Shown here piece by piece: positions 12,372 to 55,390 of a DNA stretch of 64,000 nucleotides. This DNA is from Escherichia phage allfine, in sequence record MN850633.1; one strand, given 5' to 3'. The translations under genes were made by a program, and so were the position numbers. Below the pieces are notes generated by a model that had not been told where the DNA came from, ran no database searches, and was given only the letters and a program-made list of their open reading frames with translations. Within the stretch, counting starts at the first letter, position 1. Each line of letters opens with the position of its first letter.

Positions 12372-12376
12372 TTTAT

Positions 12377-12790: not shown

Positions 12791-12793
12791 AAC

Positions 12794-12871: not shown

Positions 12872-12878
12872 ATTAATT

Positions 12879-12955
12879 TGGTCTCTGTTGGAGGACTTGA
12901 ACCTCCGGCCTTACCGCCCCAAACGGAACGCTCTACCAAGCTGAGCTAAACAGAG
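12879..12955 (-). tRNA. tRNA-Pro (UGG)
   Basis: Acceptor CUCUGUU/AACAGAG with C1-G72 typical of bacterial tRNA-Pro, D-stem GCUC/GAGC, anticodon loop UUUGGGG, T-arm GGAGG-UUCAAGU-CCUCC. Confidence 0.8.
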
Positions 12956-13072: not shown

Positions 13073-13101
13073 CATATTAAAGGGTATTAAACACATTGTC
13101 A
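13073..13101 (-). promoter_or_regulatory. sigma70-like promoter TTGACA-N17-TAATAT with hairpin in spacer, facing tRNA array
   Basis: Minus strand reads GTATTGACAatgtgtttaatacccttTAATATG; 9-bp inverted repeat AAGGGTATT/AATACCCTT overlaps spacer; about 110 nt upstream of first tRNA. Confidence 0.5.
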
Positions 13102-13120
13102 ATACCCTTTTTAAAACTTT

Positions 13121-14536
13121 TTACCAGATGTAACGGTCAATCATTACTGCTTTGAGCATTACGCTGATTGGGTCAAACTTCTCACCACCAAGCAGAGCTT
13201 TTAAAGTGGCTGGAGAGAACCCTGATACCATTGCTACACCGTTATCCTTAACAGATACTTCGCAAGTACCATTACGGTTTGCTAAGTACCAGAATACCAG
13301 TTGTGGCATCTCATATCCAGCTTTTTTGTACTTACTCTGAATTGCTTCAAAGTTTGTACGACCGTTAGCTCCATCAACCTGATTGAACTCCATATCGGAG
13401 AAGATGATAAGCTTACTTGGCATATCTTTCTGAGTCAAGTTGTTTCTTTTACCTGTTTCAAGAATGCGGTCAAAAGCTGCTTGTAAGTTAGTTGAGCCAT
13501 ATTCAACGTGTCGCATCACCTGACGATGACGGTTTCGTAAATCACCACTCAGTTCGATGAAGTGAGGGTTTGTTGAGTAAACCATTAACTCATTCTTAAA
13601 GCAACCAGTATTGCGTTCTGCTACATACAAGGCAAGTGATACACCAATATCAAGGGCAGTGATTGAACCAAGATTCACCCAAGACATTGAGCTTGAAACA
13701 TCGGTCATACACAAGATGTTCTCACCTTCTGCCATCCAGTTTGGTAGTGCTTTCCACTGCTCATTGGCAACATCTGCATTACCATGCTTGATAGACTTAA
13801 TCACATCGTATGGGTAAACAGCACCAGCGTTAATCTTAGCCTCACCCTTTGAGAGTGATTCGATGTAAGCTTTGTAACGTTCTCCATCTTTACGGTTAAA
13901 GAGCTTTTGGTAACGTGCAGCAGCGAGTGAAGGAATCTTGCTGTAGTCAATCTTACCAAACTCATTAGCAGAGATTTTTTGCTCAACTGTATCAGATAGT
14001 GCAGACAACAGTGTGCGGTACTCTTTCTCACTCAAGTTGGCAAACTTGCAGAAACGTTTTATAAACTGCTTATGACGTGGTTTGACTCGTGGTAACCACT
14101 TAGCCGCCAAACCTGCTGTTGCAGGGTCTAGTAATGCTGCTTCTAGATGTTTGAAGGCATCTGTCTCGAAACGAGTACCTACGAAGATTTTGAAGTCATC
14201 AAAACGACCAAGTTCTGCAATCTTATCCATAATGCGAAGAACCTGCGTAGGCTCTAAAACTTTGTCTTCAATCGCTTGAAGTAAAACAGTTCTGAAGGCT
14301 TTACGCTCACCCATACCTTCTCGTACATCTCGCATATGAAGCAAAATACGAACTGCAACATCAACATCCTCACGCAAAGCTTTGTAGAACAGGTCTGGTA
14401 AGATTTCTACGTTGCTACGGCTTGAACCAGCAGCTTTGTAAAAGTCTACAAGAGCAGACATTGATGAAGTATGGTTTACAGCACCATTTTCAGTTCGACC
14501 TGCATGAAGGTGCGCATGTTTAAATAATTCGCTCAT
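13121..14536 (-). CDS. vWA-domain protein, possibly TROVE/Ro60-like (471 aa)
   Basis: MIDAS-type motif MTDVSSSM followed about 100 aa later by LIIFSDMEF beta strand (vWA fold) in C-terminal third; N-terminal 270 aa helical; co-directional and immediately upstream of tRNA/tRNA-like array. Confidence 0.5.
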   Translation of the reverse strand: MSELFKHAHLHAGRTENGAVNHTSSMSALVDFYKAAGSSRSNVEILPDLFYKALREDVDVAVRILLHMRDVREGMGERKAFRTVLLQAIEDKVLEPTQVLRIMDKIAELGRFDDFKIFVGTRFETDAFKHLEAALLDPATAGLAAKWLPRVKPRHKQFIKRFCKFANLSEKEYRTLLSALSDTVEQKISANEFGKIDYSKIPSLAAARYQKLFNRKDGERYKAYIESLSKGEAKINAGAVYPYDVIKSIKHGNADVANEQWKALPNWMAEGENILCMTDVSSSMSWVNLGSITALDIGVSLALYVAERNTGCFKNELMVYSTNPHFIELSGDLRNRHRQVMRHVEYGSTNLQAAFDRILETGKRNNLTQKDMPSKLIIFSDMEFNQVDGANGRTNFEAIQSKYKKAGYEMPQLVFWYLANRNGTCEVSVKDNGVAMVSGFSPATLKALLGGEKFDPISVMLKAVMIDRYIW

Positions 14537-14617
14537 ATTTTACTCTCTTCTCTCATTTGTTTGTTGATGTGACAGACTTTAGAGCAACTTTGTAGAGTCT
14601 GTCAACACCTTTTAAAA

Positions 14618-17499: not shown

Positions 17500-17963
17500 T
17501 GCAACTCTCAAGAAAAGGTTTAGAGGCTATTAAGTTCTTTGAAGGTCTGAAGTTAGAGGCTTACGAAGACTCTGCCGGAATCCCAACAATCGGTTATGGA
17601 ACAATCCGTATTGGTGGGAAGCCTGTTAAGATGGGTATGAAAATTACGGCTGAACAAGCTGAACAGTATCTTCTTGCAGATGTTGAAAAATTCGTTGCAG
17701 CAGTTAACAAAGCTATCAAGGTTCCAACTTCTCAGAATGAGTTTGATGCACTTGTAAGTGAAACATACAACATTGGTATCACGGCTATGCAGGACTCCAC
17801 ATTTATCAAGCGCCACAATGCTGGTAATAAGGTTGGTTGTGCAGAAGCTATGCAGTGGTGGAACAAGGTCACAGTCAAAGGTAAGAAGGTCACTTCAAAC
17901 GGCCTGAAAAACAGACGTAGAATGGAAGCTGACATTTATCTTGACAGTGTATATCCAAAGTAA
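17499..17963 (+). CDS. lysozyme/endolysin, T4-lysozyme-like GH24 (154 aa)
   Basis: N-terminal catalytic pattern LEAYEDSAGIPTIGYG aligns with T4 lysozyme E11/D20/T26 region. Confidence 0.85.
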   Translation: MQLSRKGLEAIKFFEGLKLEAYEDSAGIPTIGYGTIRIGGKPVKMGMKITAEQAEQYLLADVEKFVAAVNKAIKVPTSQNEFDALVSETYNIGITAMQDSTFIKRHNAGNKVGCAEAMQWWNKVTVKGKKVTSNGLKNRRRMEADIYLDSVYPK

Positions 17964-17973
17964 TATCTTCATA

Positions 17974-17997
17974 GGCTCCTTCGGGAGCCTTTTTTAT
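17974..17997 (+). terminator. rho-independent terminator
   Basis: GGCUCC-UUCG-GGAGCC hairpin followed by UUUUUU immediately after lysozyme stop. Confidence 0.8.
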
Positions 17998-19431: not shown

Positions 19432-20012
19432 TGTCCGAAGAGCAACAGGATATCATTCCACAAGTAACACTTGTACAACACTTTGGAAATATTGAAGGGT
19501 GTGTTGCACTTTTTCAACCAAGCATCAACTCTCCTGCAAAAGTTTGCAAGCTGACTATGAATGTTAACAACATCAGTGTTTGCCTTGTGGAAGAAGTTCA
19601 ATATTTCAAGTTTAATGACAGAGAGGTTGATGCTGCACTCTTGAAGTATCGAGCAAACCTCGAAAAAGATATTGACCACAAAGAACTTGTAACATTGTTT
19701 GGTGACCTTCACAAGCTTCTTGAAAAGGTTATTAAGCGCACATATTACATGAACAATGGTTCAATCATCACCACTTTGATTTCACCATGTATTTCAGAGC
19801 CAATTTTAACTGATGACGGTGGATACTACGTGGTAGCATCAGCAGACTCTGATTGGTGGATGAAGAACACAGCACTTAAAACAGTGATTGAGGCTATCCG
19901 CGAACATATCCCTTCATTCAGCCCGTGGAAAGGTAAAAGTGATGATTTCATTGCACTATTGAGTGAAGAGAGTAACAAGCGCAGTGCATTGCTGCCTAAA
20001 AAATACTCTTGA
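19431..20012 (+). CDS. hypothetical protein (193 aa)
   Basis: ORF in plus-strand block. Confidence 0.5.
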   Translation: MSEEQQDIIPQVTLVQHFGNIEGCVALFQPSINSPAKVCKLTMNVNNISVCLVEEVQYFKFNDREVDAALLKYRANLEKDIDHKELVTLFGDLHKLLEKVIKRTYYMNNGSIITTLISPCISEPILTDDGGYYVVASADSDWWMKNTALKTVIEAIREHIPSFSPWKGKSDDFIALLSEESNKRSALLPKKYS

Positions 20013-20095
20013 CCGAGTATACAATATTGACTATGATGGGAGCTATCGAGAGGTAGTTCCCTTTTTAGTTTCTAGATAAGAGACATGGTAAAAGA

Positions 20096-23623: not shown

Positions 23624-23700
23624 TTTAGAATCTCCAGTTTAGGAAGTTGATTAAGGGTTTTATTTAGTGGGGAAGGTCATTCCCTCCCCGTTGATTGACA
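23624..23700 (-). repeat. intergenic cassette type A: RBS CTAAACTGGAGATTCTAAAATG plus hairpin GGGGAGGGAAUGACCUUCCCC
   Basis: Near-identical copies at 24234-24300, 24796-24870, 26020-26090, 26884-26960. Confidence 0.7.
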
Positions 23701-23702
23701 AT

Positions 23703-24233
23703 TTACAGACTTTTGATTGTCTCGTCAATATCTTTTTCAATATCTTTTAAAGTTTTTTCTAAGTTCTTGATATTGAAAGATAAGCCCTCTCCTAGTGTCT
23801 TAGAGTAACCGCTAGGACGTGAGTTATATAGTTCGATTTCTTCCACTTCGAAGAGACTAACCAACTCACCGCTTACACTGTAAGCCATTGAAACAGTATT
23901 TACAGGGGCTTTATAAAACTTGTTTAAGGACTTGATAGAACGTTCATAAGCCATTTTATAACCGTTTAAAAGGTTTTTAACGTGGTTACGAACGTTTTTG
24001 CACTCATCTAAGTAAATCTCTAAGAATAACGGTAATAATTCCGCTACAGCTTGCATAAAGTGAGAGACTACAACAGTAGAAACATTACGGCGATGAATGT
24101 AATAAGCCCCGTTTTCTGACTTAGTGATGGTTGCAAAGTGTACCCCATTGCAGCGAAATTCGTATGTGTCTTTTACAGGTTTTGACATTACAGCATTTGA
24201 ACGAATGAAGTTGATAGCTTTAAACTTGTTCAT
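23703..24233 (-). CDS. hypothetical protein (176 aa), array gene 14
   Basis: ORF preceded by type A cassette. Confidence 0.55.
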   Translation of the reverse strand: MNKFKAINFIRSNAVMSKPVKDTYEFRCNGVHFATITKSENGAYYIHRRNVSTVVVSHFMQAVAELLPLFLEIYLDECKNVRNHVKNLLNGYKMAYERSIKSLNKFYKAPVNTVSMAYSVSGELVSLFEVEEIELYNSRPSGYSKTLGEGLSFNIKNLEKTLKDIEKDIDETIKSL

Positions 24234-24300
24234 TTTGACTCTCCTAGTTTAAGGATTTTATTTAGTGAGGAAGGTCATCCCTCCCGTTGATTAGTAATTT
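24234..24300 (-). repeat. intergenic cassette type A
   Basis: CATTTTGACTCTCCTAGTTTAAGG...GAGGAAGGTCATCCCTCCC copy. Confidence 0.65.
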
Positions 24301-24453
24301 ACTTGTTTTGATAGCTGATTGCAAGCAATTTTTTAAGCTTATCTATAAAGAATCTTTTAAGTGAATCCCTTTTAGATAAACCCCCTCGAACAAAGTTACC
24401 AATGTCAAGGGGTATTGTCAACACTTTTTTAAAAGTTTTTTGTAAGTTATTGA

Positions 24454-24795
24454 TTAACTGATGAATATTTTTTCAGGCTTTACATAGCTGATACGTTGAC
24501 TTTTTAGAAGGTCATCCCAGATTATCGCGGCAATGTGACCATATCCGGCCTCACGTAAGAGCTTCATTGCTTTACTTCTCGTTTCAAAACGGCTTGCGTA
24601 GTACTCACTATTCAGAGTTGTTTTCTTCCCTTCATTGTCTACATGAATAATCTGCATTACGTGAAAGGGGCTTGTGTCCTCGCCTTTGTTCCACTGTTCA
24701 AAGTATTTTAGGCACTGCATAGGCGACATCTTATCACTAACCTGAGTTGACCAAGATGCGCCAGCTTTATCGGTAATTACGGTTACATAAGCCAT
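24454..24795 (-). CDS. hypothetical protein (113 aa), array gene 13
   Basis: ORF preceded by type A cassette. Confidence 0.55.
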   Translation of the reverse strand: MAYVTVITDKAGASWSTQVSDKMSPMQCLKYFEQWNKGEDTSPFHVMQIIHVDNEGKKTTLNSEYYASRFETRSKAMKLLREAGYGHIAAIIWDDLLKSQRISYVKPEKIFIS

Positions 24796-24870
24796 TTTTA
24801 GAATCTCCAGTTTAGGACTTCATTTAGTGGGGAAGGTCATTCCCTCCCCGTTGATTGACAATTTACAGAC
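24796..24870 (-). repeat. intergenic cassette type A
   Basis: Conserved RBS block and hairpin GGGGAAGGTCATTCCCTCCCC. Confidence 0.7.
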
Positions 24871-24885
24871 TTTTATCAGGCTTGT

Positions 24886-25119
24886 CTAGTCTTTTTCAAT
24901 GATAATTTCATATTGACCGTCAACGCTGTCAAAATAGATGCCGTCTTTATCTTCTGTCTTAAAGTAGCATTGTATATCATCACTTGCGGGATAGTCTTGC
25001 CGTGCTATCTGGCAAACTTGAATAGCATTTTCTTTACTTCCTGTAAACTCTTCAAGCCCTTTAAAATCGCATGAATGACCATTACAGATGGAAAGGATGA
25101 GGTAAACGGTTGTAAGCAT
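24886..25119 (-). CDS. hypothetical protein with hydrophobic N-terminus (77 aa), array gene 12
   Basis: ORF; N-terminus MLTTVYLILSICNG may be signal or lipoprotein-like. Confidence 0.45.
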   Translation of the reverse strand: MLTTVYLILSICNGHSCDFKGLEEFTGSKENAIQVCQIARQDYPASDDIQCYFKTEDKDGIYFDSVDGQYEIIIEKD

Positions 25120-25162
25120 GATTTAAGCCCCCTAAAAGCCCCTACAAGGGGCTGATTAGTGT

Positions 25163-25729
25163 TTATAAGGTGATTGCATAGGTTTTTAAAAAAAAGCTCT
25201 TTAAATCCTCTTCTGCGATGTTTCCTGCCAGTGTATCCATGATGTCACAAAAAACCTGAATGCTGTCCGACTGTTGAACGCTTTTAGCAAGAAGCTCCAG
25301 AGACTCATCAAGATAGTTTAAATTTGGGTTATCCAATGAAGGAAGACAAAAAGGCGAAAACATCGCATTAAACTCGGTTACGTAAACCTTTTTAATCCAA
25401 TTTAAATCGAAGTATTCTGTAAAACTTGCTACGCCAGACATATTATCACAAGAATAATCATCATTTAATTCGTCCTCTGGAATATCAAGTTCCAAGATAA
25501 CAATGTTTTGGGTTTTCATCTGGAAAGCTGCCGTGATAGTGGCATTTCCTAACGCCTGTTGAATACCTTCGGATACTATCTCTTCCTCATCGTCACCATA
25601 GATTTTATTTTCTGGGTATACGTAAAAATTGCCATCCATATCCGAACAATTCCATGCACCTGATGGCTTATCACCATTATTAATCAGGTTGATAAAGTTT
25701 TCTTGAGTAGTACCGTGAAAGCATTTCAT
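25163..25729 (-). CDS. hypothetical acidic protein (188 aa), array gene 11
   Basis: ORF preceded by type B cassette. Confidence 0.55.
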   Translation of the reverse strand: MKCFHGTTQENFINLINNGDKPSGAWNCSDMDGNFYVYPENKIYGDDEEEIVSEGIQQALGNATITAAFQMKTQNIVILELDIPEDELNDDYSCDNMSGVASFTEYFDLNWIKKVYVTEFNAMFSPFCLPSLDNPNLNYLDESLELLAKSVQQSDSIQVFCDIMDTLAGNIAEEDLKSFFLKTYAITL

Positions 25730-25815
25730 TTTTTGAATCTCCAGTTTAGGATTTAGTGGTAAAGCTCTTTATCTGGGGCTTACTTTATCGAACTATAAGC
25801 CCCTTGTAAAGTACT
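25730..25815 (-). repeat. intergenic cassette type B: RBS CTAAACTGGAGATTCAAAAAATG plus hairpin GGGGCTTATAGTTCGATAAAGTAAGCCCC and upstream AAAGTACTTTACAAGG motif
   Basis: Copies at 26525-26610, 27594-27685, 28199-28286, 28545-28633, 29015-29102. Confidence 0.7.
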
Positions 25816-26019
25816 TTATTTGTTATTTTTGACAACTTTTAAGACTGCAAGATACCCTAAGCAATAAGAATCACCGAAGAGAGTCCTACCCATGAAAGAA
25901 TCCTCTTTGATATCCTTTGTAGTGACAGTTTTTTCTACGCCGTGGGAAAGGACTATATCGCCAACTTTGATATCTTTGATGTGTGTAGTTTCAATGTTTA
26001 AGCCGTTAATAATAGCCAT
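25816..26019 (-). CDS. hypothetical protein (67 aa), array gene 10
   Basis: ORF preceded by type A cassette. Confidence 0.5.
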   Translation of the reverse strand: MAIINGLNIETTHIKDIKVGDIVLSHGVEKTVTTKDIKEDSFMGRTLFGDSYCLGYLAVLKVVKNNK

Positions 26020-26090
26020 TTTAGAATCTCCAGTTTAGGACTTTACTTAGTGGGGAAGGTCATTCCCTCCCCGTTGATGTGTAATTTAAT
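26020..26090 (-). repeat. intergenic cassette type A
   Basis: Conserved RBS block and hairpin. Confidence 0.7.
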
Positions 26091-26119
26091 CTATCTAAAA
26101 ACCGGTGTCAACAAAATTT

Positions 26120-26524
26120 TTAGAGTTCTGCATAAATTGCATCACAGACATCACGAAAATCGTGATTTGTCAAATTACGTTGTAACCAAGTGGCAAAGAA
26201 ATCAGCGATTGCAAAATTAGCGTCATACTCGACGGATAGCCATACTTTAACAGCAAATCGAAACATTTTTAAATCAAGCTCTTTATTCATTATCTTTGAT
26301 TTGCCTAACATGTCAGCCATTTCATATTGTGCGCCGTCTAGCGTGATACCTGATGCAACGTCAGCCAATGATTTTTTTACGTTTTCAACGTCTAAGATAA
26401 CGCTTTGAATCTTCCCGATAATGTTGTGCAATGTCTCATCAGGCGCTGATGACGTGATAACATTAATCCGGTTAACGGTCAAACGTGCTTTTAAGATTGA
26501 TAATTCACGGTTATTAATAGCCAT
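26120..26524 (-). CDS. hypothetical protein (134 aa), array gene 9
   Basis: ORF preceded by type B cassette. Confidence 0.55.
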   Translation of the reverse strand: MAINNRELSILKARLTVNRINVITSSAPDETLHNIIGKIQSVILDVENVKKSLADVASGITLDGAQYEMADMLGKSKIMNKELDLKMFRFAVKVWLSVEYDANFAIADFFATWLQRNLTNHDFRDVCDAIYAEL

Positions 26525-26610
26525 TTTTAAGTTCTCCAGTTTAGGATTTAGTGGTAAAGCTCTTTATCTGGGGCTTACTTTATCGAACTATAAGCCCCCT
26601 GTAAAGTACT
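26525..26610 (-). repeat. intergenic cassette type B
   Basis: Conserved RBS block and hairpin. Confidence 0.7.
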
Positions 26611-26883
26611 TTACACTAAATGCAGCTTTTTACCTTTTACTATGATGTAACTCGATGCGCTATTGCTTTGCACATCCTGATAAATTCTGCGCAAACGGCC
26701 TTCGTAGTATACTTTCCAACTGGTTGGAATCTTTTTCCCGTATCCTGTAGCAGTTTTTTGTAGTCCTGCAAGTTGCCAATCTAAGATATGTTGTTCGGCT
26801 TGTAAATCTTCGAAGTGCATTACACCGTTCACATAGTGACGAATGGTTACGTTTAAGGTGCGACCGTTGTTAGTAGTGTACAT
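26611..26883 (-). CDS. hypothetical protein (90 aa), array gene 8
   Basis: ORF preceded by type A cassette. Confidence 0.55.
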   Translation of the reverse strand: MYTTNNGRTLNVTIRHYVNGVMHFEDLQAEQHILDWQLAGLQKTATGYGKKIPTSWKVYYEGRLRRIYQDVQSNSASSYIIVKGKKLHLV

Positions 26884-26960
26884 TTTGAATCTCCTAGTTT
26901 AAGGACTTTACTTAGTGGGGAGGTTATTACCTCCCGTTGATTAGTAATTTACTTGTTTTA
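26884..26960 (-). repeat. intergenic cassette type A variant
   Basis: CATTTTGAATCTCCTAGTTTAAGG...GGGGAGGTTATTACCTCCC. Confidence 0.65.
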
Positions 26961-26970
26961 AAAACCAAAA

Positions 26971-27303
26971 TCAAGAGGAATTTTTTCGTTTGCTCAATTC
27001 TTGAACAATTACAGCGTAGTAGTCTTTTAAGTCACTGACATTTAAAGCATTTATCAGAGAATTATAATCATCGACTAACTGAAAATCATCTTTGAAAATG
27101 TCGCTGATTTGATAAGTTTTTGATTGAAATCTGAAGCTCATTTCTAACCGTTTTATTTGTTCATCACTTAAACGCTCCAGAAAGCTCATTACAAGGCTAT
27201 TATTGACCTGTTGCGTGATTGCCTTATTTGCTAGATTATAGGCTTTATATGCCTTATATAGCGCGAAAATGGCAAGGATTGCGGTGATGCCAGTCATTAA
27301 CAT
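26971..27303 (-). CDS. hypothetical membrane-anchored protein (110 aa), array gene 7
   Basis: N-terminal TM helix MLMTGITAILAIFALYKAY. Confidence 0.5.
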   Translation of the reverse strand: MLMTGITAILAIFALYKAYKAYNLANKAITQQVNNSLVMSFLERLSDEQIKRLEMSFRFQSKTYQISDIFKDDFQLVDDYNSLINALNVSDLKDYYAVIVQELSKRKNSS

Positions 27304-27593
27304 GGTGTTTCCTCTTTACGTGATACTTTGCCATTTACAGTTATCTCATAGGATTCTAATAAGTCACTTTTAGACTTTACTGGACTTTTAAAAGTATCAT
27401 CATAAATATTTACTTGCAATACAGGTTTTTTATACTCCCTGCAACTATTCCATAAGCAAATCACTACGCGACGGCCTTTTATTTTGCCGTGCAACCATTC
27501 CATAACATCATGATTATTTCTTGATGTCTCGATAAAATCAATTTTGTTGAGTAATTTGCTCAGATTTTCACGCACTTGATTTGATAATTTCAT
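27297..27593 (-). CDS. hypothetical protein (98 aa), array gene 6
   Basis: ORF preceded by type B cassette; overlaps downstream gene start by 7 nt. Confidence 0.55.
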   Translation of the reverse strand: MKLSNQVRENLSKLLNKIDFIETSRNNHDVMEWLHGKIKGRRVVICLWNSCREYKKPVLQVNIYDDTFKSPVKSKSDLLESYEITVNGKVSRKEETPC

Positions 27594-27685
27594 TTTAGAA
27601 TCTCCTAGTTTAAGGGCTTTATTTGATAAATCTCTTTATCTGGGGCTATCTTACCAGCTTGATAACCCCGTGTAAAGAAATCTAT
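27594..27685 (-). repeat. intergenic cassette type B variant
   Basis: Conserved RBS block; hairpin GGGGCTATCTTACCAGCTTGATAACCCC. Confidence 0.6.
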
Positions 27686-28198
27686 TTAGTTCTTAAAGAT
27701 ATTCATCACTGAGTCTTTCAACGATTCCAAACGTTCTAATACTTCAGTTTCTGCGTCTGAATTGTTCACCTCTTCTTTTAGTCTATCTTCTAAATCCTCA
27801 CCGTCACTATAGCACCAATCGAAAGCGTAACCAATATAAAAGCTGTCTAAAACCGTTTTACCGTTTGCATCTACAACTTTCGCGGCAATGTTATACTCTG
27901 AAGCTTCTAAATCTCTTTCTAGTTCTTTTTGTAAGCTGATGTAAGCCTCTTTTGATGGATTTTCCCGGCCTTGTTTTGCATAGTCACTTGAAAGCTGTTT
28001 AAGGCTGTAATGCAAAGGGATTGCATATTTAAATGCATTATGCTGATAGTTAGGATTTTTAACAGTCACGCCGCCTTGATGGTCATCTGTAAACTTCCAA
28101 TTATCAAGGTTATGGCTTGCTTCGTAGCAATTTACCGCTTCATAGATAATGGTGAATTTTTCTTTTACAACTTCAAAAGTAGCGTCTACAGTTTTCAT
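27686..28198 (-). CDS. hypothetical acidic protein (170 aa), array gene 5
   Basis: ORF preceded by type B cassette. Confidence 0.55.
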   Translation of the reverse strand: MKTVDATFEVVKEKFTIIYEAVNCYEASHNLDNWKFTDDHQGGVTVKNPNYQHNAFKYAIPLHYSLKQLSSDYAKQGRENPSKEAYISLQKELERDLEASEYNIAAKVVDANGKTVLDSFYIGYAFDWCYSDGEDLEDRLKEEVNNSDAETEVLERLESLKDSVMNIFKN

Positions 28199-28286
28199 TT
28201 TTGAATCTCCAGTTTAGGATTTAGTGGTAAAGCTCTTTATCTGGGGCTTAAGATATCAACTTTTAAGCCCCTTGTAAAGTACTTTA
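28199..28286 (-). repeat. intergenic cassette type B
   Basis: Conserved RBS block and hairpin. Confidence 0.7.
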
Positions 28287-28544
28287 TCAGATTAAATTGC
28301 CAGTTAATGATAAGTGCATTTTATAGCCTTTTTTGGTAAAGACGTTCACTTTACCGAGTGATTTTACACCTTTAAAAAGGTTGTTTGAACTGCGTTTTAA
28401 GGTTAGTTGTTTATCAGCCTTTACTCCCCATCTTACAGCGGATTGTTTTCCGTTGTCAACCACTTTCCCGCATAACTTTTTAGCCATAACGCGAGCGTCA
28501 TCACGAGTTTTTGCAGCAATTACAACGTTTTTGATAATAGCCAT
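28287..28544 (-). CDS. hypothetical basic protein (85 aa), array gene 4
   Basis: Start placed at Met 6 of track ORF because conserved cassette RBS is positioned for ATG at 28544. Confidence 0.5.
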   Translation of the reverse strand: MAIIKNVVIAAKTRDDARVMAKKLCGKVVDNGKQSAVRWGVKADKQLTLKRSSNNLFKGVKSLGKVNVFTKKGYKMHLSLTGNLI

Positions 28545-28633
28545 TTTTAAGTTCTCCAATTTAGGATTTAGTGGTAAAGCTCTTTATCTGGGGCTTACTT
28601 TATCGAACTATAAGCCCCTTGTAAAGTACTTTA
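28545..28633 (-). repeat. intergenic cassette type B
   Basis: Conserved RBS block and hairpin. Confidence 0.7.
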
Positions 28634-29014
28634 TCAGTTAATTTTGAAAATTGTCACATAGCCGTCACTGCCGATTATTTGAGACACTCCAGCTTTTTCC
28701 ACTGAATAGCCCATATTTTCAAGATGATAAACAGCATCATCATAACCATATGCGCCACCCTGATAACGTCTCTTATCGCATCTTATCAGGTTTTTACCAC
28801 GTCCTGCAAGTGCATTCAGTACAGCTTTTTCACTTGATAGCGTACCATCTAACATGGTTGCCGTGTAATGGTTGATTTTATTCCCGTTAATATCATACTT
28901 AAAATTGAATGCGTGAATAACAATCAATTTGCCGTTAAATTTTTCATCAAGTGACTTCTCCAGTGCGTTGCGGAAGTTGTCTTTGTTGATGAATTTCGGT
29001 GCACGATAAGCCAT
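28634..29014 (-). CDS. hypothetical protein (126 aa), array gene 3
   Basis: ORF preceded by type B cassette. Confidence 0.55.
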   Translation of the reverse strand: MAYRAPKFINKDNFRNALEKSLDEKFNGKLIVIHAFNFKYDINGNKINHYTATMLDGTLSSEKAVLNALAGRGKNLIRCDKRRYQGGAYGYDDAVYHLENMGYSVEKAGVSQIIGSDGYVTIFKIN

Positions 29015-29102
29015 TTTTGAATCTCCTAGTTTAAGGTTAATGTAGTAAAGCTCTTTATCTGGGGCTTACTTTATCGAACTATAAGCCCCTTGTAAAGTAC
29101 TT
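29015..29102 (-). repeat. intergenic cassette type B
   Basis: Conserved RBS block and hairpin. Confidence 0.7.
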
Positions 29103-29309
29103 TTATCTATCGTAATAGTAAACCGCTGTCTGTTTTATATGTCGCTTTGTATTCTTCGTAAGGTAGCAATTAGAGTTGATTGCCGTTTCTACATAGTTGC
29201 AATAATCAGCTTCTGATATTCTACGCCATGCGCCGCACACTTGCATGTAAAAACGTTTTACCTTTGTATTAACGTTGGTTGTAACCATCAATTCACGGCT
29301 GTAAATCAT
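29103..29309 (-). CDS. hypothetical protein (68 aa), array gene 2
   Basis: Start taken at ATG overlapping upstream stop (TAATG) rather than track start 29324. Confidence 0.45.
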   Translation of the reverse strand: MIYSRELMVTTNVNTKVKRFYMQVCGAWRRISEADYCNYVETAINSNCYLTKNTKRHIKQTAVYYYDR

Positions 29310-29548: not shown

Positions 29549-29577
29549 ATATTAGATAACCATACTCAAAGAGTCAA
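29549..29577 (-). promoter_or_regulatory. sigma70-like promoter TTGACT-N17-TAATAT driving small-ORF array
   Basis: Minus strand reads TATTGACTctttgagtatggttatcTAATAT, about 45 nt upstream of first array ATG; same -10 as tRNA-array promoter. Confidence 0.5.
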
Positions 29578-32823: not shown

Positions 32824-33519
32824 TCAATGTTTAACTAACATGGTTTTGATGTGTGGAAGGATTCTATTCACCTTCTGCACATTCTTCTCTGTATCTTCTA
32901 TAAAACATACTATATTAAAGTAAGGCAGAATGCAAGACTGAATCATCCTCACTTTCAAACTTTCTGCACTTATAGAGTTAGTCCCAAAACCACGCATAAA
33001 AAGCATGTAGTCATGCTCTGTGTTATGCCTTAAAAACATCTCAGTAGGTATTCTCTGAGATTCGCCTCTCGCTGTCAAGAGTCCAACGGCAGCATGATTA
33101 GCAATTGCATCAATGATATTGAAAACATACGTTGGTTTTGCTCTTACAGAGTCAAGAAGATTAGTGTACTGTGAAAATGAACCATCAGTCAGTTCCGTTG
33201 AACAATCTTCGTGATTAAAATTTGTAAGAACACCATCAATATCTGCTAAGATGAGATTCCCTTTTTCTATAAGGTCTTTATTGACTATGACTAAACTATC
33301 ACGTTTTACACCTATGGATTGTCCAGTCTTTTTGTCCACAACGTTCACAATTGGTTCTGACGTGTGGAACTCTTCAAGTGAACATACAACTTCTCTTGCG
33401 GTGTCTTCAAAGTCTCTACACTGTTCTGGAGTCCATACACAGGAATCAAGACCTAACTCATGAGGATGTAAGTCATAAGCATGACACAGTACTTCATCAG
33501 ACTTTTTTAATTTTTTCAT
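32824..33519 (-). CDS. HAD-superfamily hydrolase, possible 5-prime nucleotidase (231 aa)
   Basis: HAD motif I LADIDGVLTNF in central region. Confidence 0.5.
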   Translation of the reverse strand: MKKLKKSDEVLCHAYDLHPHELGLDSCVWTPEQCRDFEDTAREVVCSLEEFHTSEPIVNVVDKKTGQSIGVKRDSLVIVNKDLIEKGNLILADIDGVLTNFNHEDCSTELTDGSFSQYTNLLDSVRAKPTYVFNIIDAIANHAAVGLLTARGESQRIPTEMFLRHNTEHDYMLFMRGFGTNSISAESLKVRMIQSCILPYFNIVCFIEDTEKNVQKVNRILPHIKTMLVKH

Positions 33520-34045
33520 GGTTTACCTTAGAAATGTTTGTTGCAAATTCACATTGAGCAATAACTTTCATGTTGTTATAGACATCTTGAGAATATTTCT
33601 TAGCTTTAGGGATTTTGTACGAATACCCAGCATTATATGATGCTAAAACTTTTTGTAAAGTCTTCTTTGACTTTGGCTGACCATGCACCTTTGTCCAAAA
33701 CTCAAGCTCTTTGTGAGTTTCCTTCGCAGCATAATCAAAGTCTCTTAAGAGTTTCTTTTTAGCCACATTAGGACTAATTTTGTTACGCTTTACAACAGTC
33801 TTCAAGTGATTCTGGAAGATACCATAATCATGTGTCTTTTTATTCTCTACCTTCAGACCTAACTCTGACTCTTGTAAGGCTATAGCAGCTAGAGTGATAC
33901 CCCAACCTTTACCCATGTTATTCTCACCATACTGGTAAGCTTTTAACATGTTTACTTTTTGGCTAATTGATAGCTCTGGGCAGTCAACTGCATAAGATAA
34001 GTGTGCTGTAAACATTAAGCACAAACCTAGAATCAATTTCTTCAT
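33497..34045 (-). CDS. secreted lytic transglycosylase-like protein (182 aa)
   Basis: N-terminal signal peptide MKKLILGLCLMFTAHLSYA; QESELG ... YGIFQ resembles SLT catalytic ES and GLMQ motifs. Confidence 0.45.
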   Translation of the reverse strand: MKKLILGLCLMFTAHLSYAVDCPELSISQKVNMLKAYQYGENNMGKGWGITLAAIALQESELGLKVENKKTHDYGIFQNHLKTVVKRNKISPNVAKKKLLRDFDYAAKETHKELEFWTKVHGQPKSKKTLQKVLASYNAGYSYKIPKAKKYSQDVYNNMKVIAQCEFATNISKVNHEKIKKV

Positions 34046-34145: not shown

Positions 34146-35255
34146 TTAGATTTCACGTTTACGTTGGGAGATTAGTTCACCAGCAGTGCCAACGATGACA
34201 TGCAAAGCTTCAGTCTTGCCATCCCATTCTTTCAGCACTTTACGTTGATTATCAACGATTGCTGCAACTTCATAACGAGACGAACGCATCTTCATATCGT
34301 TGTAATCAGTTGGAACAGATACAACATCTCGTGGATGGACACGAACCTTCAGGATTGTATCACCTGAGAAGCAACGAACATAATCCCAAGCACCAACGTG
34401 AAGACCCTGAGAGCAAGTCACGTTACGGTTATTATCAACCATCCAACGTGGCATTTCTACAATGTTACCCAAATCATTAGGTACTCTGTAGGTGTGGGAG
34501 TCAACCAGCTTGCCTTCATGAGTAGAGACTTTCTTCCAACCAATGATGTAGCCTTCTTCATCAATTTCAACATCAAGGTGAGATACGAATCCCCAAAGTT
34601 GTTCTACAGAGTCTTTAGATGGGTTTTCCATCAGTTTTTCGAAGAACATCACAAGGCGTTCAAAACCCTTATCTCCAGTCTTCATCATGTGAAGAATACG
34701 GTCAACCAGAGTAGAACGCATCTCAACAGCACCGTAGAATAACTTGTCACCTTTGATGGTGATAGCACCCTGAGTGAAGTTTTCGATAGACTTACGAATG
34801 TTCATCAGTTCGAAAGCTTTCTTATACTCACCGGATACAACAGCCATCACGATTTCTTTGTAGTTCGGATGGGTAGATTCAACGATTTCAGAATCTGCAC
34901 CGAAAGTCATGATAACAGAGTCGCCAGTAATCATGTACTCAATCTGGTTGCCATTCTGCATAGCTTCATGCAGTTTATTTACCGGAGCTTTCTGTACATC
35001 CTCGTTAACAGCCTTTTTAACTGGCTTGTCAGCTTTCTTTTTAACTGATTTAGCAACTTGCTTCAAAGTCTTCGTAGCTGGTTTAGAAGCTACCTTTTTC
35101 TTACCTTTTAAGGTTGCTTCATGACGCTCTACAGCACGACCAACTGAACGGGTTGAGGTGTTAAATTTCTGTGCAATAGCTGTTTTAGTCAGCTTACCCT
35201 CTTTAACCAGTTTGTAAATTTCTGCGTCAATCTGTGCTTTAGTTTTAGTAGTCAT
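34146..35255 (-). CDS. rIIB-like protein (369 aa), tentative
   Basis: Immediately downstream of rIIA-like gene; N-terminal HTH-like segment and Lys-rich linker; assignment by synteny only. Confidence 0.35.
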   Translation of the reverse strand: MTTKTKAQIDAEIYKLVKEGKLTKTAIAQKFNTSTRSVGRAVERHEATLKGKKKVASKPATKTLKQVAKSVKKKADKPVKKAVNEDVQKAPVNKLHEAMQNGNQIEYMITGDSVIMTFGADSEIVESTHPNYKEIVMAVVSGEYKKAFELMNIRKSIENFTQGAITIKGDKLFYGAVEMRSTLVDRILHMMKTGDKGFERLVMFFEKLMENPSKDSVEQLWGFVSHLDVEIDEEGYIIGWKKVSTHEGKLVDSHTYRVPNDLGNIVEMPRWMVDNNRNVTCSQGLHVGAWDYVRCFSGDTILKVRVHPRDVVSVPTDYNDMKMRSSRYEVAAIVDNQRKVLKEWDGKTEALHVIVGTAGELISQRKREI

Positions 35256-35299: not shown

Positions 35300-35329
35300 A
35301 TTCTAAGGGGCTTCAAAGCCCCTTGTCAA
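35300..35329 (-). promoter_or_regulatory. sigma70-like promoter TTGACA-N18-TAGAAT with GGGGCUUUGAAGCCCC hairpin in spacer
   Basis: Minus strand GTTTGACAaggggctttgaagccccTTAGAAT about 45 nt upstream of ATG at 35255. Confidence 0.5.
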
Positions 35330-35334: not shown

Positions 35335-37701
35335 TTAATCGTAAATTGTAGTCCCTTCTGGAACACACTTCACATCAAAGCCCAAGAACTTACTCACTTC
35401 GATGGGTGACACTTTATTCCAATCTAAATGAGAAAGCAAGAAGTTTTCTTGTTTCCTTTTTGAGAAGTAGTTTGTCACCTTAATAAACATACGGTCACCA
35501 GCTTTCTTAATTTTCTTGTAAAGCTTTGTATCATTATCAAGACACCTTTTCAAATCTTGCAACACACTAATAGTGTAAGTGTATGCAAATTGTGCAGCAA
35601 TGTATTGGATTTTACCGAACATTGCCTCAACAGCATCTTCATTACCTTCTAGGAAGATAGTTTTGTTTGTATCCCGTGAATAGCAATAACCATCAGAAAT
35701 CTTCCTGTTATTGAACGTAAAGTTTCTGGTAATAATCCAACAGCTTGTAAGGTCTAGGACACCACGCATACAGACGCGTGTCATATACCTGTTATGATTA
35801 ATCCAATGAACATCAGTTAAGCTGTCGTTCAAGAGCTTCTCATCTACTTCAATCCAGTCTTCTGGTATCTTTTTCCAATTTGCTTTTCGGAAAACATAGA
35901 CTGTCTTTCCAATGACATTGGCAACTGACTTAGCTACATCATCTGGAGATGAGCAAAAACATTCGCCATCAACTGTGTCACCTACTGCCTTAATATAAAG
36001 CTGAGGCTCTTCAATCGTGTCTAAGTCTTCTGACACCTCTGTGTATGAGGCTACACCTTCTGCTGGAACAGCTTTCCAGAGTTTTACAACACCTCTTACA
36101 GCTTCTTTACGCTGATAGTGATGTTCCTTATCAGACATCTTCACAATCTTTAACAAGCTTTTATCAAGTTTGTGTAGGTTGATTAAGTCATCTAGCTCTT
36201 TTTCAGTCGAGAATACAAACACAATACCATTATATCTGTGAAACAGACTTGACTCACTGGCGTAATCTCGACATGCACCACGCAGAATCTGATTGCGGCC
36301 TACAGTCTTCTCAGTGCCATTTTTATTACGACGGTCATTAATCACGAACAAAAACTGTTCAATTTGGCTTTTACGCATTGCACCAAAGATATTGAACATA
36401 CTTGCCTCTTGAGTGTAGGAAAGTGCTGTTGCACGAATCTTACTCTCTAAAGAGTTGAACTTGACATAAGCAACTGGATTATAAAGATAATCCACTTTAG
36501 GGATATTGTTCCCGTTCCTATCAACCTTGATATTACCTTTACCGTCACGTTCATAAATGACTGAGCCGTCTTCTGCGTAGATAATCCCACGACGGATGTT
36601 TAGTAATTCTACTTCCAGAGAATCAAGCTTAACGCCTCCCCACTCTAGCTTTGGACACACAACATTAAACATCTCTCGTGAGTTCAAACGTAACTCAGCA
36701 TAAGCCTGTGCAGCATCCATGAGTGTAGGTTGGCTGTTAACTTTCTTGATAACATCCTTTGTAATGGCTTCAGTTATCTTTTTAGTAGCCTCAATGATAA
36801 CATTTTTTGTCGTATCATTCATCTGCAATGCTTCACGAGAAGCTGCAATAGCAACTGAACCAATAGGCATGTAAATGTTTACAAGGTCTACGCTCCTACG
36901 GAAAAACTCTGGCAAGACTTTGAAGAAATCATCACCAAGTAATGCTTCCATATTAACTGGATAGGCAATATTACCCATCACCACATTAAACTCTGTCCTG
37001 TTACCACTAGAACGCCAGCTTTGCTTATGAATCATAGCGTCATAAACACCTTCTTCACGAGCAATGACATTCATGTCTGCTAACACGTCATCATATACAA
37101 TATTACTTTCTGGTTTTACAGCAAAGTATGAGTATACGTGACCAGCCTCTTCAAAGAACTTTGAAATACGGTGGTCAGCAACTGCCACACGTACAGCTAA
37201 ACCATTAGGTTCTTTTGTTGGGTTAGTGGTCAGCTTAGTTACTTGAGGGATACCATTCTCAAGGTAAACAGAGTACTTATTAACAACACCATCAACATAG
37301 CTAGATACTGTGAATGACTGAGCAATTGCAAATGGAGATTTTGAACCGATACCCATTGCACCAATGTAATCATTAGAGTCATTCTTCGTAGAAGCCCCGT
37401 AGTTTAGGTACAAACTCATAACTTTATCATGAGTCAATCCAGTTCCAAAATCACGGACTTCAAAGTAAGGCTCAAAACGAGTAGGTAAATGCACATGGAA
37501 CGGGATATTCTCTTTTCCAGCTTCTTTCTGAGCATCTACTGCGTTACATGACAGTTCACGAATCACTGCCCTTTCTTTAAAGGTATATACACCAGAACTC
37601 AAAAGGCTGAACATTTCAGGTGTCATTGTAATCTGTGCTTGAGATGTCTCCAAAGAAGTTGAACTCTTAATCACTTCTGCGTGGTCATTTACCATGCGCA
37701 T
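35335..37701 (-). CDS. rIIA: rIIA-like protein with N-terminal GHKL-type ATPase fold (788 aa)
   Basis: Bergerat-fold N box RELSCNAVDA and G1 box RDFGTGL near N-terminus; size and pairing with downstream gene as in T4 rIIA-rIIB. Confidence 0.55.
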   Translation of the reverse strand: MRMVNDHAEVIKSSTSLETSQAQITMTPEMFSLLSSGVYTFKERAVIRELSCNAVDAQKEAGKENIPFHVHLPTRFEPYFEVRDFGTGLTHDKVMSLYLNYGASTKNDSNDYIGAMGIGSKSPFAIAQSFTVSSYVDGVVNKYSVYLENGIPQVTKLTTNPTKEPNGLAVRVAVADHRISKFFEEAGHVYSYFAVKPESNIVYDDVLADMNVIAREEGVYDAMIHKQSWRSSGNRTEFNVVMGNIAYPVNMEALLGDDFFKVLPEFFRRSVDLVNIYMPIGSVAIAASREALQMNDTTKNVIIEATKKITEAITKDVIKKVNSQPTLMDAAQAYAELRLNSREMFNVVCPKLEWGGVKLDSLEVELLNIRRGIIYAEDGSVIYERDGKGNIKVDRNGNNIPKVDYLYNPVAYVKFNSLESKIRATALSYTQEASMFNIFGAMRKSQIEQFLFVINDRRNKNGTEKTVGRNQILRGACRDYASESSLFHRYNGIVFVFSTEKELDDLINLHKLDKSLLKIVKMSDKEHHYQRKEAVRGVVKLWKAVPAEGVASYTEVSEDLDTIEEPQLYIKAVGDTVDGECFCSSPDDVAKSVANVIGKTVYVFRKANWKKIPEDWIEVDEKLLNDSLTDVHWINHNRYMTRVCMRGVLDLTSCWIITRNFTFNNRKISDGYCYSRDTNKTIFLEGNEDAVEAMFGKIQYIAAQFAYTYTISVLQDLKRCLDNDTKLYKKIKKAGDRMFIKVTNYFSKRKQENFLLSHLDWNKVSPIEVSKFLGFDVKCVPEGTTIYD

Positions 37702-38240: not shown

Positions 38241-38261
38241 AAAAAGGCTCCCGTAGGAGCC
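38241..38261 (-). terminator. rho-independent terminator
   Basis: Minus strand GGCUCCUACGGGAGCC hairpin plus UUUUU after NAMPT-family gene stop. Confidence 0.75.
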
Positions 38262-38276
38262 TCTTATCATATACTT

Positions 38277-40058
38277 TTAAAGCTGCTTGTCAATATTATT
38301 TCGAATATCACCAAGAGTTGTGTAACCGAACTGTTCAGAGTCACTAAAAATTAAGCGTAGAGCACAAGCTGGGTGGTCAAGTGCATCTGCAAAGCTCTGG
38401 AATCCATAGCCATCTACAGCTTTCAGCTTCTCACCATCCCACATAGGTGCTACACCACCAAAGGCAGATTTCTTAACACCACTATCTGTTTTAGGGTCTT
38501 TTGCAAGCATAATCTCTTTACCACCAATGCTTGCAAGAGTTGCTTTGACAGCAAATGCAAAGGTGTCACGAGTCATGTACTGGTAAGTGTAAGAACCTAC
38601 GCCAAACACTACGTTAGAGCTTGCAAAACCCATTTCATACAGACGCTTCAGGATTTCGTTTGCACGTTCCAGCGTGATAGAGTCACCATAGATAAGTCCG
38701 ATATGCTCATCCAGTACCTTAAACCCTTTAGAGTTAATAGTTCCCCCAAAGATGTTGTACAGTGTCTTAATAGCTCCATCAATCTCAGCTACAGGACGTG
38801 TTACAACGTTTGCAGAACCAACCATATAAGCATTTTTCAACAGCACTGTATCAGCAACTTCAAAGTCTTCTCTGTCAACAACCATTTCGTAGCCTTCTGA
38901 CAGTAGCCATCCAGCAATACCATAATTGATGTTTTCAAGCTTCATGTTCAGGACAGAGTTCAGCATTGTGTCACTTGCCTCTAGCTTGCTTAGGTGCTCG
39001 TAATAAGCCTTCTTAGCACACTCTAAGTGGATTGCTTTATAGCCTGTGACAATATGTACAGGGTCTCCAGAGTCAGGACGAATTACCAGTTTGCCATCAC
39101 GTTCCATAATTTCTTTACGGAGTGCTGGTAAGATTTCTGACACAGTTCTCCAGAAGTTATAAGTATCTGAAACAATACTTACAATACCAGTTGGGTAAGT
39201 TTCTGTTAAGAAACGACGGAAGGTTTGTAACTCACCTTTAAAGCGTCTTTCTTCTTCAATCAGTTCATTACCACCTTCCCAAGCAATGTTTGCACACATT
39301 ACAGAGTGTTCAGTGGCTGGTACAGAACTACCAATATCAGAAATTGGGTAAGACTGTCCATAGATGCGTTTAGCCGTGTATACAGCAGGGAAACTATCAG
39401 TTCCTTTAAAGCTGGTTAAGTGACCTACAGCATTAAATGCGTCATCGGTAAAGCCGGACATACCACGCATAGCAAAGTCATGGCACTGATAAGGTAAATG
39501 TAAGTCGTTATCGCAAGTAAGGTCAGCCCACTTCTTACAGATACGTTTGTAGTGCAATGCGATAGTTGCAATGGTGCAAGCCTTCCAAATCTCAGCAGAG
39601 AAAGCATCTTCCAGATAACCTGCTACCCAATGGAAACCTGAAACAGTGTTCTGGAAGACAATCATTGGGACACGCATCGGGACAACTGTGCCTTCTTCTA
39701 CAGCGTATACTTCAACTGGCAGATAACCTAAGTCGTGAAGTGCTTCCCAATGCTCTCGACCGATAGCATCTTTACCCAGAACACCATTCATGACTTCTAA
39801 GATTTCGTCAATTGCTTCTTTTTTATCACGTTCAAAGAAAGTGGCGTTCCAGTGGTCTATCAAGTAATCTTTAACAAAACGTTGAATACCAAAAGCCACT
39901 ACACCATCAATTGCTAAAGGGCTGTTAAACCATTTGTCGCTACGTGGTGTCAGGTTGAACATCAAGTACTCTGTTGCACTAGGATACTGGTAAACATGAC
40001 CAGATTTGTAAGCATCTGCGTTTAAACCTGCTGGTACTGCATAAAGCGATTTAGTCAT
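38277..40058 (-). CDS. nicotinamide phosphoribosyltransferase family protein (NAMPT/NadV or Namat-like, 593 aa)
   Basis: N-terminal DAYKSGHVYQYP matches NAMPT DSYKVTHYKQYP; C-terminal GDSITLE...FGVGSYTYQ matches NAMPT core. Confidence 0.85.
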   Translation of the reverse strand: MTKSLYAVPAGLNADAYKSGHVYQYPSATEYLMFNLTPRSDKWFNSPLAIDGVVAFGIQRFVKDYLIDHWNATFFERDKKEAIDEILEVMNGVLGKDAIGREHWEALHDLGYLPVEVYAVEEGTVVPMRVPMIVFQNTVSGFHWVAGYLEDAFSAEIWKACTIATIALHYKRICKKWADLTCDNDLHLPYQCHDFAMRGMSGFTDDAFNAVGHLTSFKGTDSFPAVYTAKRIYGQSYPISDIGSSVPATEHSVMCANIAWEGGNELIEEERRFKGELQTFRRFLTETYPTGIVSIVSDTYNFWRTVSEILPALRKEIMERDGKLVIRPDSGDPVHIVTGYKAIHLECAKKAYYEHLSKLEASDTMLNSVLNMKLENINYGIAGWLLSEGYEMVVDREDFEVADTVLLKNAYMVGSANVVTRPVAEIDGAIKTLYNIFGGTINSKGFKVLDEHIGLIYGDSITLERANEILKRLYEMGFASSNVVFGVGSYTYQYMTRDTFAFAVKATLASIGGKEIMLAKDPKTDSGVKKSAFGGVAPMWDGEKLKAVDGYGFQSFADALDHPACALRLIFSDSEQFGYTTLGDIRNNIDKQL

Positions 40059-40104
40059 CTTTTAATCTCTCTCAAAATGGGGCTTAAAAGCCCCCTATAA
40101 AGTT

Positions 40105-41783: not shown

Positions 41784-41834
41784 ATTATCTCCAAAATAAA
41801 AAGGGAACCTTTACAGTTCCCTAATCATAGACTC

Positions 41835-44174: not shown

Positions 44175-44185
44175 CTTGTCAAGTT

Positions 44186-55318: not shown

Positions 55319-55390
55319 TATTTAAACCTCTATCTCAATTTATGAAGAGTACCAATTCTAATTTGTTGATACTCTATTGTCAAACATTAA

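Follow-up and report, generated by a model that had tools for sequence, protein, structure and literature searches.

Predicted sigma-70 promoters that overlap hairpins at gene junctions of Escherichia phage allfine, a Felix O1-like phage

Why a promoter should carry a stable hairpin between its two hexamers is the question raised by two intergenic sites of Escherichia phage allfine (sequence record MN850633.1), of which a stretch of 64,000 nucleotides (nt), referred to here as the window, was analysed in full. An initial annotation had placed promoters at 13073-13101 and 35300-35329, each with a near-consensus -35 TTGACA and a -10-like hexamer 17-18 nt apart. Both sites (site 1 and site 2; Table 1) are present, on the minus strand, the range of the first being off by one base, and their hexamers, their spacing and the AT-rich tract before them are conserved across relatives; as predicted promoters, both are well supported by sequence. 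Bases 12000-15000 share 97.7% identity with Escherichia phage vB_EcoM_ASO1A, and 260 phage records match. By sequence similarity, the window belongs to a Felix O1-like myovirus of the genus Felixounavirus (Ounavirinae), and gene names were carried over from NC_041979.1.

The reading we favour, and consider reasonably probable, is that each unit is a sigma-70 promoter overlapping a hairpin that acts on read-through RNA from the upstream gene, with transcription restarting beyond it. As duplex DNA, the unit would serve as a host sigma-70 promoter for the downstream gene or genes: site 2 for rIIB, and site 1, jointly with a second tandem promoter (P2), for the tRNA array. As read-through RNA, it would form a hairpin about 10 nt past the upstream stop codon, which may attenuate or end upstream transcripts or protect their 3' end. 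Transcription is predicted to start about 7 nt after the -10 hexamer, inside or beyond the hairpin, so that the full structure would be present in read-through RNA only and the promoter's own transcript, without a complete hairpin, would escape it. Such an overlap would be possible because almost any sequence is tolerated in a promoter spacer or in the apical loop of a hairpin, and 20-30 nt would thereby be saved in a tightly packed genome. This reading is carried by the anatomy of the sites, their conservation, the recurrence of the arrangement across the window and RNA-type covariation on the sense strand of paralogous cassettes; from these we infer promoter activity, the position of the start site and an effect of the hairpin on RNA, whether termination, pausing, processing or stabilisation.

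Site 2 lies in the 79-nt gap between the homologues of rIIA (35335..37701) and rIIB (34146..35255) and scores 11 of 12 consensus positions. Its spacer is a G-C-rich hairpin of 8 base pairs (bp) with a 4-nt loop, which begins 10 nt past the rIIA stop codon (35337..35335) and folds in context at -13.3 kcal/mol (z = -2.7). The spacer alone reaches -11.6 kcal/mol and is the sole stable spacer among 47 promoter-like sites. The rIIA stop codon is found 5 nt before the -35 hexamer, and AGAGAG..ATG is located downstream. In a comparison of 30 IMG/VR loci, TTGACA (TTGACT in one), the GGGGC/GCCCC stem and a -10 hexamer of TAGAAT or TAAAAT were kept, and the loop alone varied. Relatives from diverged genera, with 77-87% rIIB identity, keep the site with a 17-nt spacer (one base lost) and rewritten flanks. 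The equivalent of site 2 is annotated as a promoter in GenBank KR014248.1, where its hairpin goes unmentioned. In reverse transcription polymerase chain reaction experiments on phage Felix O1, rIIA transcripts were at their maximum at 25 min and rIIB transcripts at 10 min (Whichard et al., 2010, PMC3185647), which fits a separate promoter for rIIB.

More distant phages carry comparable arrangements at the same junction. A contig with 45% rIIB identity (L033) combines TTGACA with an unrelated hairpin, AAGTGGTC-TAATAA-GGCCACTT, over the -10 region, while the rIIA-rIIB junction of phage RB49 has TTGTCG, 17 nt and TGgTATAAT, followed by a hairpin (GGGCGGC..GTCGCCC). In an Erwinia Kolesnikvirus (59% identity), a GGGGCTG-GAAA-CAGCCC hairpin stands 10 nt past the rIIA stop codon and the hexamers are degenerate. 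The arrangement thus recurs without sequence homology, and the hairpin can occur without a promoter; its retention in the Erwinia phage despite the degenerate hexamers indicates that it has a function of its own.

Site 1 is located in a 165-nt gap between the stop codon of a gene for a 471-amino-acid DUF2828/DUF7788 protein and tRNA-Pro, the first of 25 tRNA genes, and its promoter (P1) scores 10 of 12 consensus positions. The hairpin begins 10 nt past that stop codon (13123..13121) and folds at -13.5 kcal/mol (z = -3.3). Its 5' arm covers the first two bases of the -35 hexamer, and its 3' arm takes up the second half of the spacer and reaches the first T of the -10 hexamer; the hairpin of site 2 likewise ends where the -10 begins, on its first base. 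The initial annotation had described the spacer as half or all of a GC-rich inverted repeat. This is accurate for site 2, where the repeat takes up the whole spacer; at site 1 it does occupy half, but "GC-rich" is unfit because the stem has three G-C pairs (of 10-12), with GGG/CCC set within AT-rich arms. Among 27 related loci, the unit is essentially invariant from the stop codon to 15 nt beyond the -10, while the upstream gene end and the downstream spacer both diverge. Changes in the 3' arm are of A to G alone, which retain a U.G pair on the minus strand. Distant homologues of the 471-amino-acid protein (L061-L065) lack the tRNA context and are uninformative for this site. The equivalent of site 1 in KR014248.1 carries no annotation.

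The tandem promoter P2 is found 91 nt downstream of P1, and its -10 hexamer ends about 27 nt before tRNA-Pro (12955..12879). P2 is conserved, with a -10 of TATAGT in relatives at about 85% identity; in these, its spacer also contains a small dyad, ACACTA..TAGTGT. The AT-rich tract upstream of P1 (Table 1) has a similar counterpart, ATTTTAAAAAAGTTC, before P2, and both promoters are preceded by TTTTAAAAA(A)G. Compared with the E. coli UP-element consensus, these tracts resemble an UP element. The tandem arrangement, with an upstream tract before each promoter, is reminiscent of rRNA operon promoters. In Felix O1, the two genes that precede the tRNAs reached their transcript maximum at 5 min (PMC3185647).

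The arrangement is not confined to these two sites. When every intergenic gap was surveyed and the window was scanned jointly for hairpins and promoters, about 21 candidate composites were obtained, including 11 cassettes of a small-gene array and five promoters whose -10 hexamer abuts a stem (Table 1). Of the 48 sites that match the consensus at 10 or more of 12 positions, nine coincide in part with a hairpin on the same strand that folds at -9 kcal/mol or better, compared with 2.58 +/- 1.54 (maximum 9) in 2000 trials of random placement, a null that ignores the confinement of both features to short intergenic gaps. On this statistic and on conservation, chance co-occurrence of promoter and hairpin was rejected. 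The five abutting hairpins, mostly canonical terminators, start 0-3 nt past a -10, where a rough density estimate gives about 0.2 by chance. Conservation of two of them was checked in 28 relatives. At 38293, relatives with 74-78% protein identity keep the -35 ATTGACAA and a -10 of TATGAT or TATTAT, while spacer and synonymous sites change; at 41852, TTGAAA, 17 nt and TATGAT or TACTAT are retained in two differing upstream contexts. In KR014248.1, the equivalent of 14570..14605 carries a promoter annotation, and the promoter and terminator of 17941..17990 are both annotated. The hairpin of 44142..44182 folds at -22.9 kcal/mol (z = -5.6).

It had also been pointed out that the -10 of site 1, TAATAT, recurs at the promoter heading the small-gene array (site 3). 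The hexamer is indeed present there, but it was given no weight: TAATAT is frequent in DNA of 39% G+C, the value for the window, and the spacer of site 3 contains no hairpin.

Because the stems of the two flagged sites are near-invariant in about 30 relatives, covariation was examined in the paralogous cassette family of the array. There (23375-29497, minus strand), repeated intergenic cassettes of 75-100 nt, which fall into two classes, stand between about 14 small genes of ORFan type. A 17-mer from class A is present two to seven times in each Felix O1-like contig found. The class A -10 hexamer, TAnnnT, occupies the apical loop, and in 107 aligned copies of the main 46-nt length class it is kept at -12 (T, 104 copies), -11 (A, 104) and -7 (T, 103), with G at -14 in 94, while positions -10 to -8 vary freely. 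As TTTACA belonged to the search anchor, its invariance does not count as evidence. Among 120 distinct copies, two pairs of the inner stem alternate between TA and AT, a third takes the forms CG/TG/TA and a fourth AT/TG/CG/TA; one pair of the outer stem is GC in 95 copies and TA in 15, and another is TG in 111. On the sense strand, the stems contain about 84 G.U cells against a single A.C cell. This asymmetry indicates that the helix is selected on the sense single strand, as RNA, and not as a symmetric DNA palindrome.

The downstream genes might instead be expressed by read-through alone, the hairpin being functional and the hexamers fortuitous or inactive. The Erwinia phage, with its rIIA-rIIB hairpin and no recognisable hexamers, would accord with this, as would the finding that consensus matches are no commoner in the window than in shuffled sequence. 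Yet TTGACA and TAnAAT stand 17-18 nt apart in all 30 site-2 loci despite the indel in the spacer, hexamers are likewise kept at site 1, 38293 and 41852, the -12, -11 and -7 positions are conserved inside an otherwise variable cassette loop, and five hairpins start 0-3 nt past a -10. We regard this alternative as very improbable.

A coupling of initiation to DNA structure had been proposed for the two sites. In this reading, the inverted repeat would extrude as a hairpin or cruciform in DNA that is supercoiled or transiently single-stranded and would alter the geometry of -35 and -10, so that initiation would respond to DNA topology. This proposal was not supported: the G.U excess and the compensatory changes in the cassettes indicate sense-strand RNA, and under such an asymmetry one strand alone needs to pair. 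At sites 1 and 2, whose own stems barely vary, the case against the proposal is less strict. Cruciforms form poorly from arms as short as 8-10 bp with 4-12-nt loops, and in hexamers and spacing the sites look like ordinary sigma-70 promoters used as duplex. No phage RNA polymerase is reported in the Felix O1 genome paper (PMC3185647). As DNA, the folds have moderate stability (-7.9 and -8.2 kcal/mol), and the loop alleles of site 2 speak for some extrusion. Two of these alleles, CTTTGAAG and CTTCAAAG (TTTGAA and TTCAAA; loci L004-L032), are exact reverse complements, and they occur on otherwise identical flanks in L005 and L010 and in L004 and L006. This looks like recurrent hairpin-mediated inversion, potentially by template switching, and would mean that the DNA hairpin forms at least occasionally. 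Even so, control of initiation by extrusion seems barely probable. Scarcely better are the prospects of a mixed form, in which the spacer hairpin would additionally be a DNA switch, extruded by negative supercoiling from upstream transcription or by transient single-strandedness during replication or injection, with a change in spacing and twist between -35 and -10; if it held, firing of the rIIB and tRNA promoters would be coupled to upstream activity.

The dyad could also be a DNA operator: a dimeric protein of the phage or its host would bind the palindrome between or over the hexamers and silence the promoter in the course of infection. At site 2 the dyad is perfect and matches the spacer exactly, where operators are classically found; GGGGC..GCCCC is shared by site 2, class A cassettes and other places, and a "transcriptional regulator" is annotated in the genome of a relative. 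Units differ, however, in stem sequence, in the length of the arms and in loop size (4 to 17 nt), and the dyad may stand anywhere between a position upstream of the -35 and one downstream of the -10, with no fixed position shared. With about 84 G.T cells against one A.C, the cassette arms are not true DNA palindromes, and the same GGGGC stems occur in ordinary terminators that have no promoter (e.g., 40094..40079). An operator is quite unlikely, though less firmly so at site 2 with its perfect dyad.

Among RNA-level explanations, the hairpins could be processing or stability elements only, through RNase III-type cuts that divide polycistronic early RNA into units or through protection of a 3' or 5' end, with the promoters merely adding transcription. 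The hairpins of sites 1 and 2 and of both cassette classes lack U tracts, whereas the ordinary terminators of this phage have them. Class A forms a long interrupted helix of about 20 bp (10-13 outer and 8-9 inner pairs, both covarying), and class B hairpins would lie within a few nt of the predicted 5' end of their own transcript. Conversely, the stems of sites 1 and 2, at 8-12 bp, are short for RNase III. A comparable stem-loop of phages RB49 and phi1 reduced downstream reporter expression to the same extent as rrnB T1 (Arbiol et al., 2010, PMC2839356). Processing or stability as the sole function appears unlikely.

Several observations weigh against the promoter-plus-hairpin reading that we favour. 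No U tract follows either flagged hairpin, which makes efficient intrinsic termination doubtful: a terminator scan does not call site 2 (tail UUAGAAUAG) and calls site 1 only marginally (tail UUUAAUAUGUUCU, three G-C pairs). The stems of both sites hardly vary, so that direct covariation is absent and the RNA-level evidence comes from the cassette family. A G to A variant in the 3' arm of site 2 (L007, L032) produces a C.A mismatch on the sense strand. At two of the five promoters that abut a stem (38293 and 17941), a transcript beginning 6-7 nt past the -10 would retain the greater part of the G-C core. Promoter-consensus matches number 43 in the window, against 45 expected in shuffled sequence, and the literature on Felix O1-like phages yielded no usable transcript, start-site or termination data.

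The suggestion that such units are recombination-prone cassettes is supported for the array and not for the two flagged sites. Between 23.6 and 29.1 kb, cassettes join one upstream gene end to varied downstream genes: upstream end U0 is followed by D0 in 20 phages and by D3 in 2, U2 by D3 in 11 and D12 in 1, and U9 by D3 in 6 and D12 in 3. One locus (L067) carries a fused solo cassette from which the gene has been deleted. At sites 1 and 2, by contrast, each relative examined has one copy in unchanged synteny.

Table 1. Predicted promoters, hairpins and composites of the window
Feature	Coordinates	Strand	Promoter elements	Hairpin and other features
Site 1 promoter P1	13074..13102	minus	-35 TTGACA 13102..13097; 17-nt spacer; -10 TAATAT 13079..13074	
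Site 1 hairpin	13079..13110	minus		AAAGGGTATT (13110..13101) / AATACCCTTT (13088..13079); 12-nt loop
AT-rich tract	13103..13120	minus		AAAGTTTTAAAAAGGGTA; upstream of P1 -35
Tandem promoter P2	12982..13011	minus	TTGACA; 18 nt; TGtTAAAGT (extended -10)	
Site 2 promoter	35300..35329	minus	TTGACA 35329..35324; 18-nt spacer AGGGGCTTTGAAGCCCCT; TAGAAT 35305..35300	
Site 2 hairpin	35305..35324	minus		AAGGGGCT-TTGA-AGCCCCTT; fills spacer; no U tract
Site 3	29549..29577	minus	TTGACT 29577..29572; 17 nt; TAATAT 29554..29549	heads small-gene array
Composite	14570..14605	minus	TTGACA; 18 nt; TAAAGT	9-bp inverted repeat TGACAGACT / AGTCTGTCA spans -35 and -10
Composite	44142..44182	minus	TTGACA; weak -10 TAGGCT	16-pair hairpin directly after -35, enclosing -10; ends in T run
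Composite	55346..55383	minus	TTGACA; 17 nt; TAGAAT	AGAGTATC..GGTACTCT encloses -10
Promoter abutting terminator	38242..38293	minus	TTGACA; 16 nt; TATGAT	terminator hairpin directly after -10
Promoter abutting terminator	41802..41852	minus	TTGAAA; 17 nt; TATGAT	terminator hairpin 1 nt later
Promoter abutting terminator	17941..17990	plus	TTGACA; 17 nt; TATCTT	terminator 3 nt later
Promoter abutting terminator	20009..20061	plus	TTGACC; 17 nt; TATGAT	terminator 0 nt later
Promoter abutting hairpin	55669..55722	minus	TTGACA; 17 nt; TAGAAT	CTCCTC..GGGGAG 1 nt later; no T run
Class A cassettes (six)	25759..29103	minus	TTTACA; 17 nt; TAnnnT	GGGGCTTA...TAAGCCCC encloses -10; longer outer stem
Class A, -35 to -10 spans	25810..25782, 26605..26577, 27676..27648, 28278..28250, 28625..28597, 29096..29068	minus		
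Class B cassettes (five)	23669..26935	minus	-35-like hexamer; 17 nt; TAAATT	GGGGAGGG..CCTTCCCC about 10 nt after -10
Class B hairpins	23689..23669, 24849..24829, 26072..26052, 26935..26917, within 24324..24267	minus		

Further features were observed elsewhere in the window. The 512-nt non-coding region before the small-gene array (29498-30009, minus strand) contains three copies of TGTGCAGGT, each preceded by a CATTTT-type motif, and a related TGTGCAGAG is found at 34088-34096, between a terminator and TATAAT, upstream of the gene at 33497..34045; the pattern has six matches in the window against 2.1 expected. A promoter-less hairpin, GGGGCTTTTAAGCCCC, follows the NAMPT gene at 40079-40094. 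In five relatives (L119, L123, L131, L132 and L142) an inserted open reading frame (ORF), whose product starts MDKGYFEKYL, replaces this hairpin, an indel at an intergenic hairpin. Between two convergent gene blocks, 1.65 kb (21722-23374) contain no convincing ORF and are rich in short repeats (CTTAACA, TCTTAACAG, CTATAGAG and tandem AAGTTATTTTGAAGTAGTTTAA); as a guess, this region could be a replication origin or a protein-binding array.

Scanned with Rfam at gathering scores, the whole window yielded tRNAs alone and no other curated RNA family. A 26th tRNA-like gene (11305-11383, minus strand; Rfam score 31.7 bits) was missed by ARAGORN, and NC_041979.1 has tRNA-Arg at this position. Relative to the same genome, nrdD contains an insertion of about 745 nt (45041-45872, minus strand) with an HNH endonuclease ORF (45296..45760; Pfam HNH_3, E = 1e-10) and a group I intron-like RNA (45363..45183) that scores 33 bits, under the Rfam gathering score of 50. 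The DNA polymerase gene contains an insertion of about 810 nt (62408-63219, plus strand) with an Endonuclease VII-domain ORF (62523-63008, E = 9e-20), and is probably interrupted by a mobile intron or a homing-endonuclease insertion.

Of the known systems that pair a promoter with a hairpin, the early promoters of phage N4 lack a -35 and a -10 and are used, as an extruded hairpin, by a virion RNA polymerase. The units described here share with them the combination of promoter and DNA hairpin, but they carry canonical sigma-70 hexamers and the covariation points to RNA, and on these grounds an N4-type hairpin promoter was set aside. An intrinsic terminator followed by a restart promoter is similar in that a hairpin just past the stop codon precedes the promoter of the next gene, and the five units with an abutting -10 include ordinary terminators with T runs. 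Sites 1 and 2 differ in having the hairpin within the promoter itself, with the -10 hexamer where a U tract would stand.

Within the genus, the Felix O1 genome paper lists two direct repeats, of 57 bp (CTTTACATGGGGCTTAAAAGTCTGTAAAGTAAGCCCCAGATAAAGAGCTTTACCACT) and 39 bp (TTGACACTGGTTTTTAGATAGATTAAATTACACATCAAC), which are identical with the cassettes of class A and class B respectively (Whichard et al., 2010, PMC3185647). That paper gives these repeats no promoter or hairpin reading and does not have sites 1 and 2 among its five promoters; the way in which transcription gets past the many terminators is, in its words, not known (PMC3185647). Restart promoters built into or against hairpins are proposed here as an answer.

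The closest parallel is provided by the promoter-early stem-loops (PeSLs) of the T4-like phages RB49/phi1, PST/T4 and nt-1/KVP40 (Arbiol et al., 2010, PMC2839356; Comeau et al., 2014, PMC4122927). RB49 is the phage for which PeSLs were defined. In RB49/phi1, composites with the stem-loop between -35 and -10 were demonstrated to have both promoter and attenuator activity (PMC2839356), and PeSLs have a demonstrated role in modular shuffling, with mini-circle formation (PMC2839356, PMC4122927). Like PeSLs, the units of the window are intergenic and combine a sigma-70-type promoter with a stem-loop, often GGGG...CCCC, and have an AT-rich tract with a stop codon before the -35. All of the PeSL registers, with the stem-loop between the boxes, over either, upstream or just past the -10, are present. 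In PeSLs, a Shine-Dalgarno sequence and start codon follow the promoter; site 2 has AGAGAG..ATG, and site 1 has tRNA genes instead. Sites 1 and 2 share with PeSLs the hexamers about 17 nt apart and the overlapping stem-loop; being single-copy, syntenic and beside conserved genes, they do not form a repeated family and are not associated with shuffling. The array cassettes agree with PeSLs in every sequence-level feature: they are repeated, flank small ORFans and mark gene-content junctions between relatives, and the class A TTTACA-N17-TAnnnT resembles the PST/T4 PeSL consensus TTTACW-N17-TAYWAT.

The units differ from the PeSLs of those papers in their host, a Felixounavirus, in having no sequence homology to the T4-like motifs and in that activity is here predicted, while RNA-type covariation and strand asymmetry are added for the cassettes. 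As units of 30-60 nt, they would offer natural boundaries for gene insertion and deletion in the annotation and engineering of Felix O1-like genomes, and the multi-copy form would mark the points at which small early genes are swapped. In the two PeSL papers, the composite design is described only for T4-like phages; its extension here to Felixounavirus, a group not related to them whose phages have therapeutic and diagnostic uses, suggests that a dual-coded element serving both to insulate genes and to restart transcription has evolved convergently.

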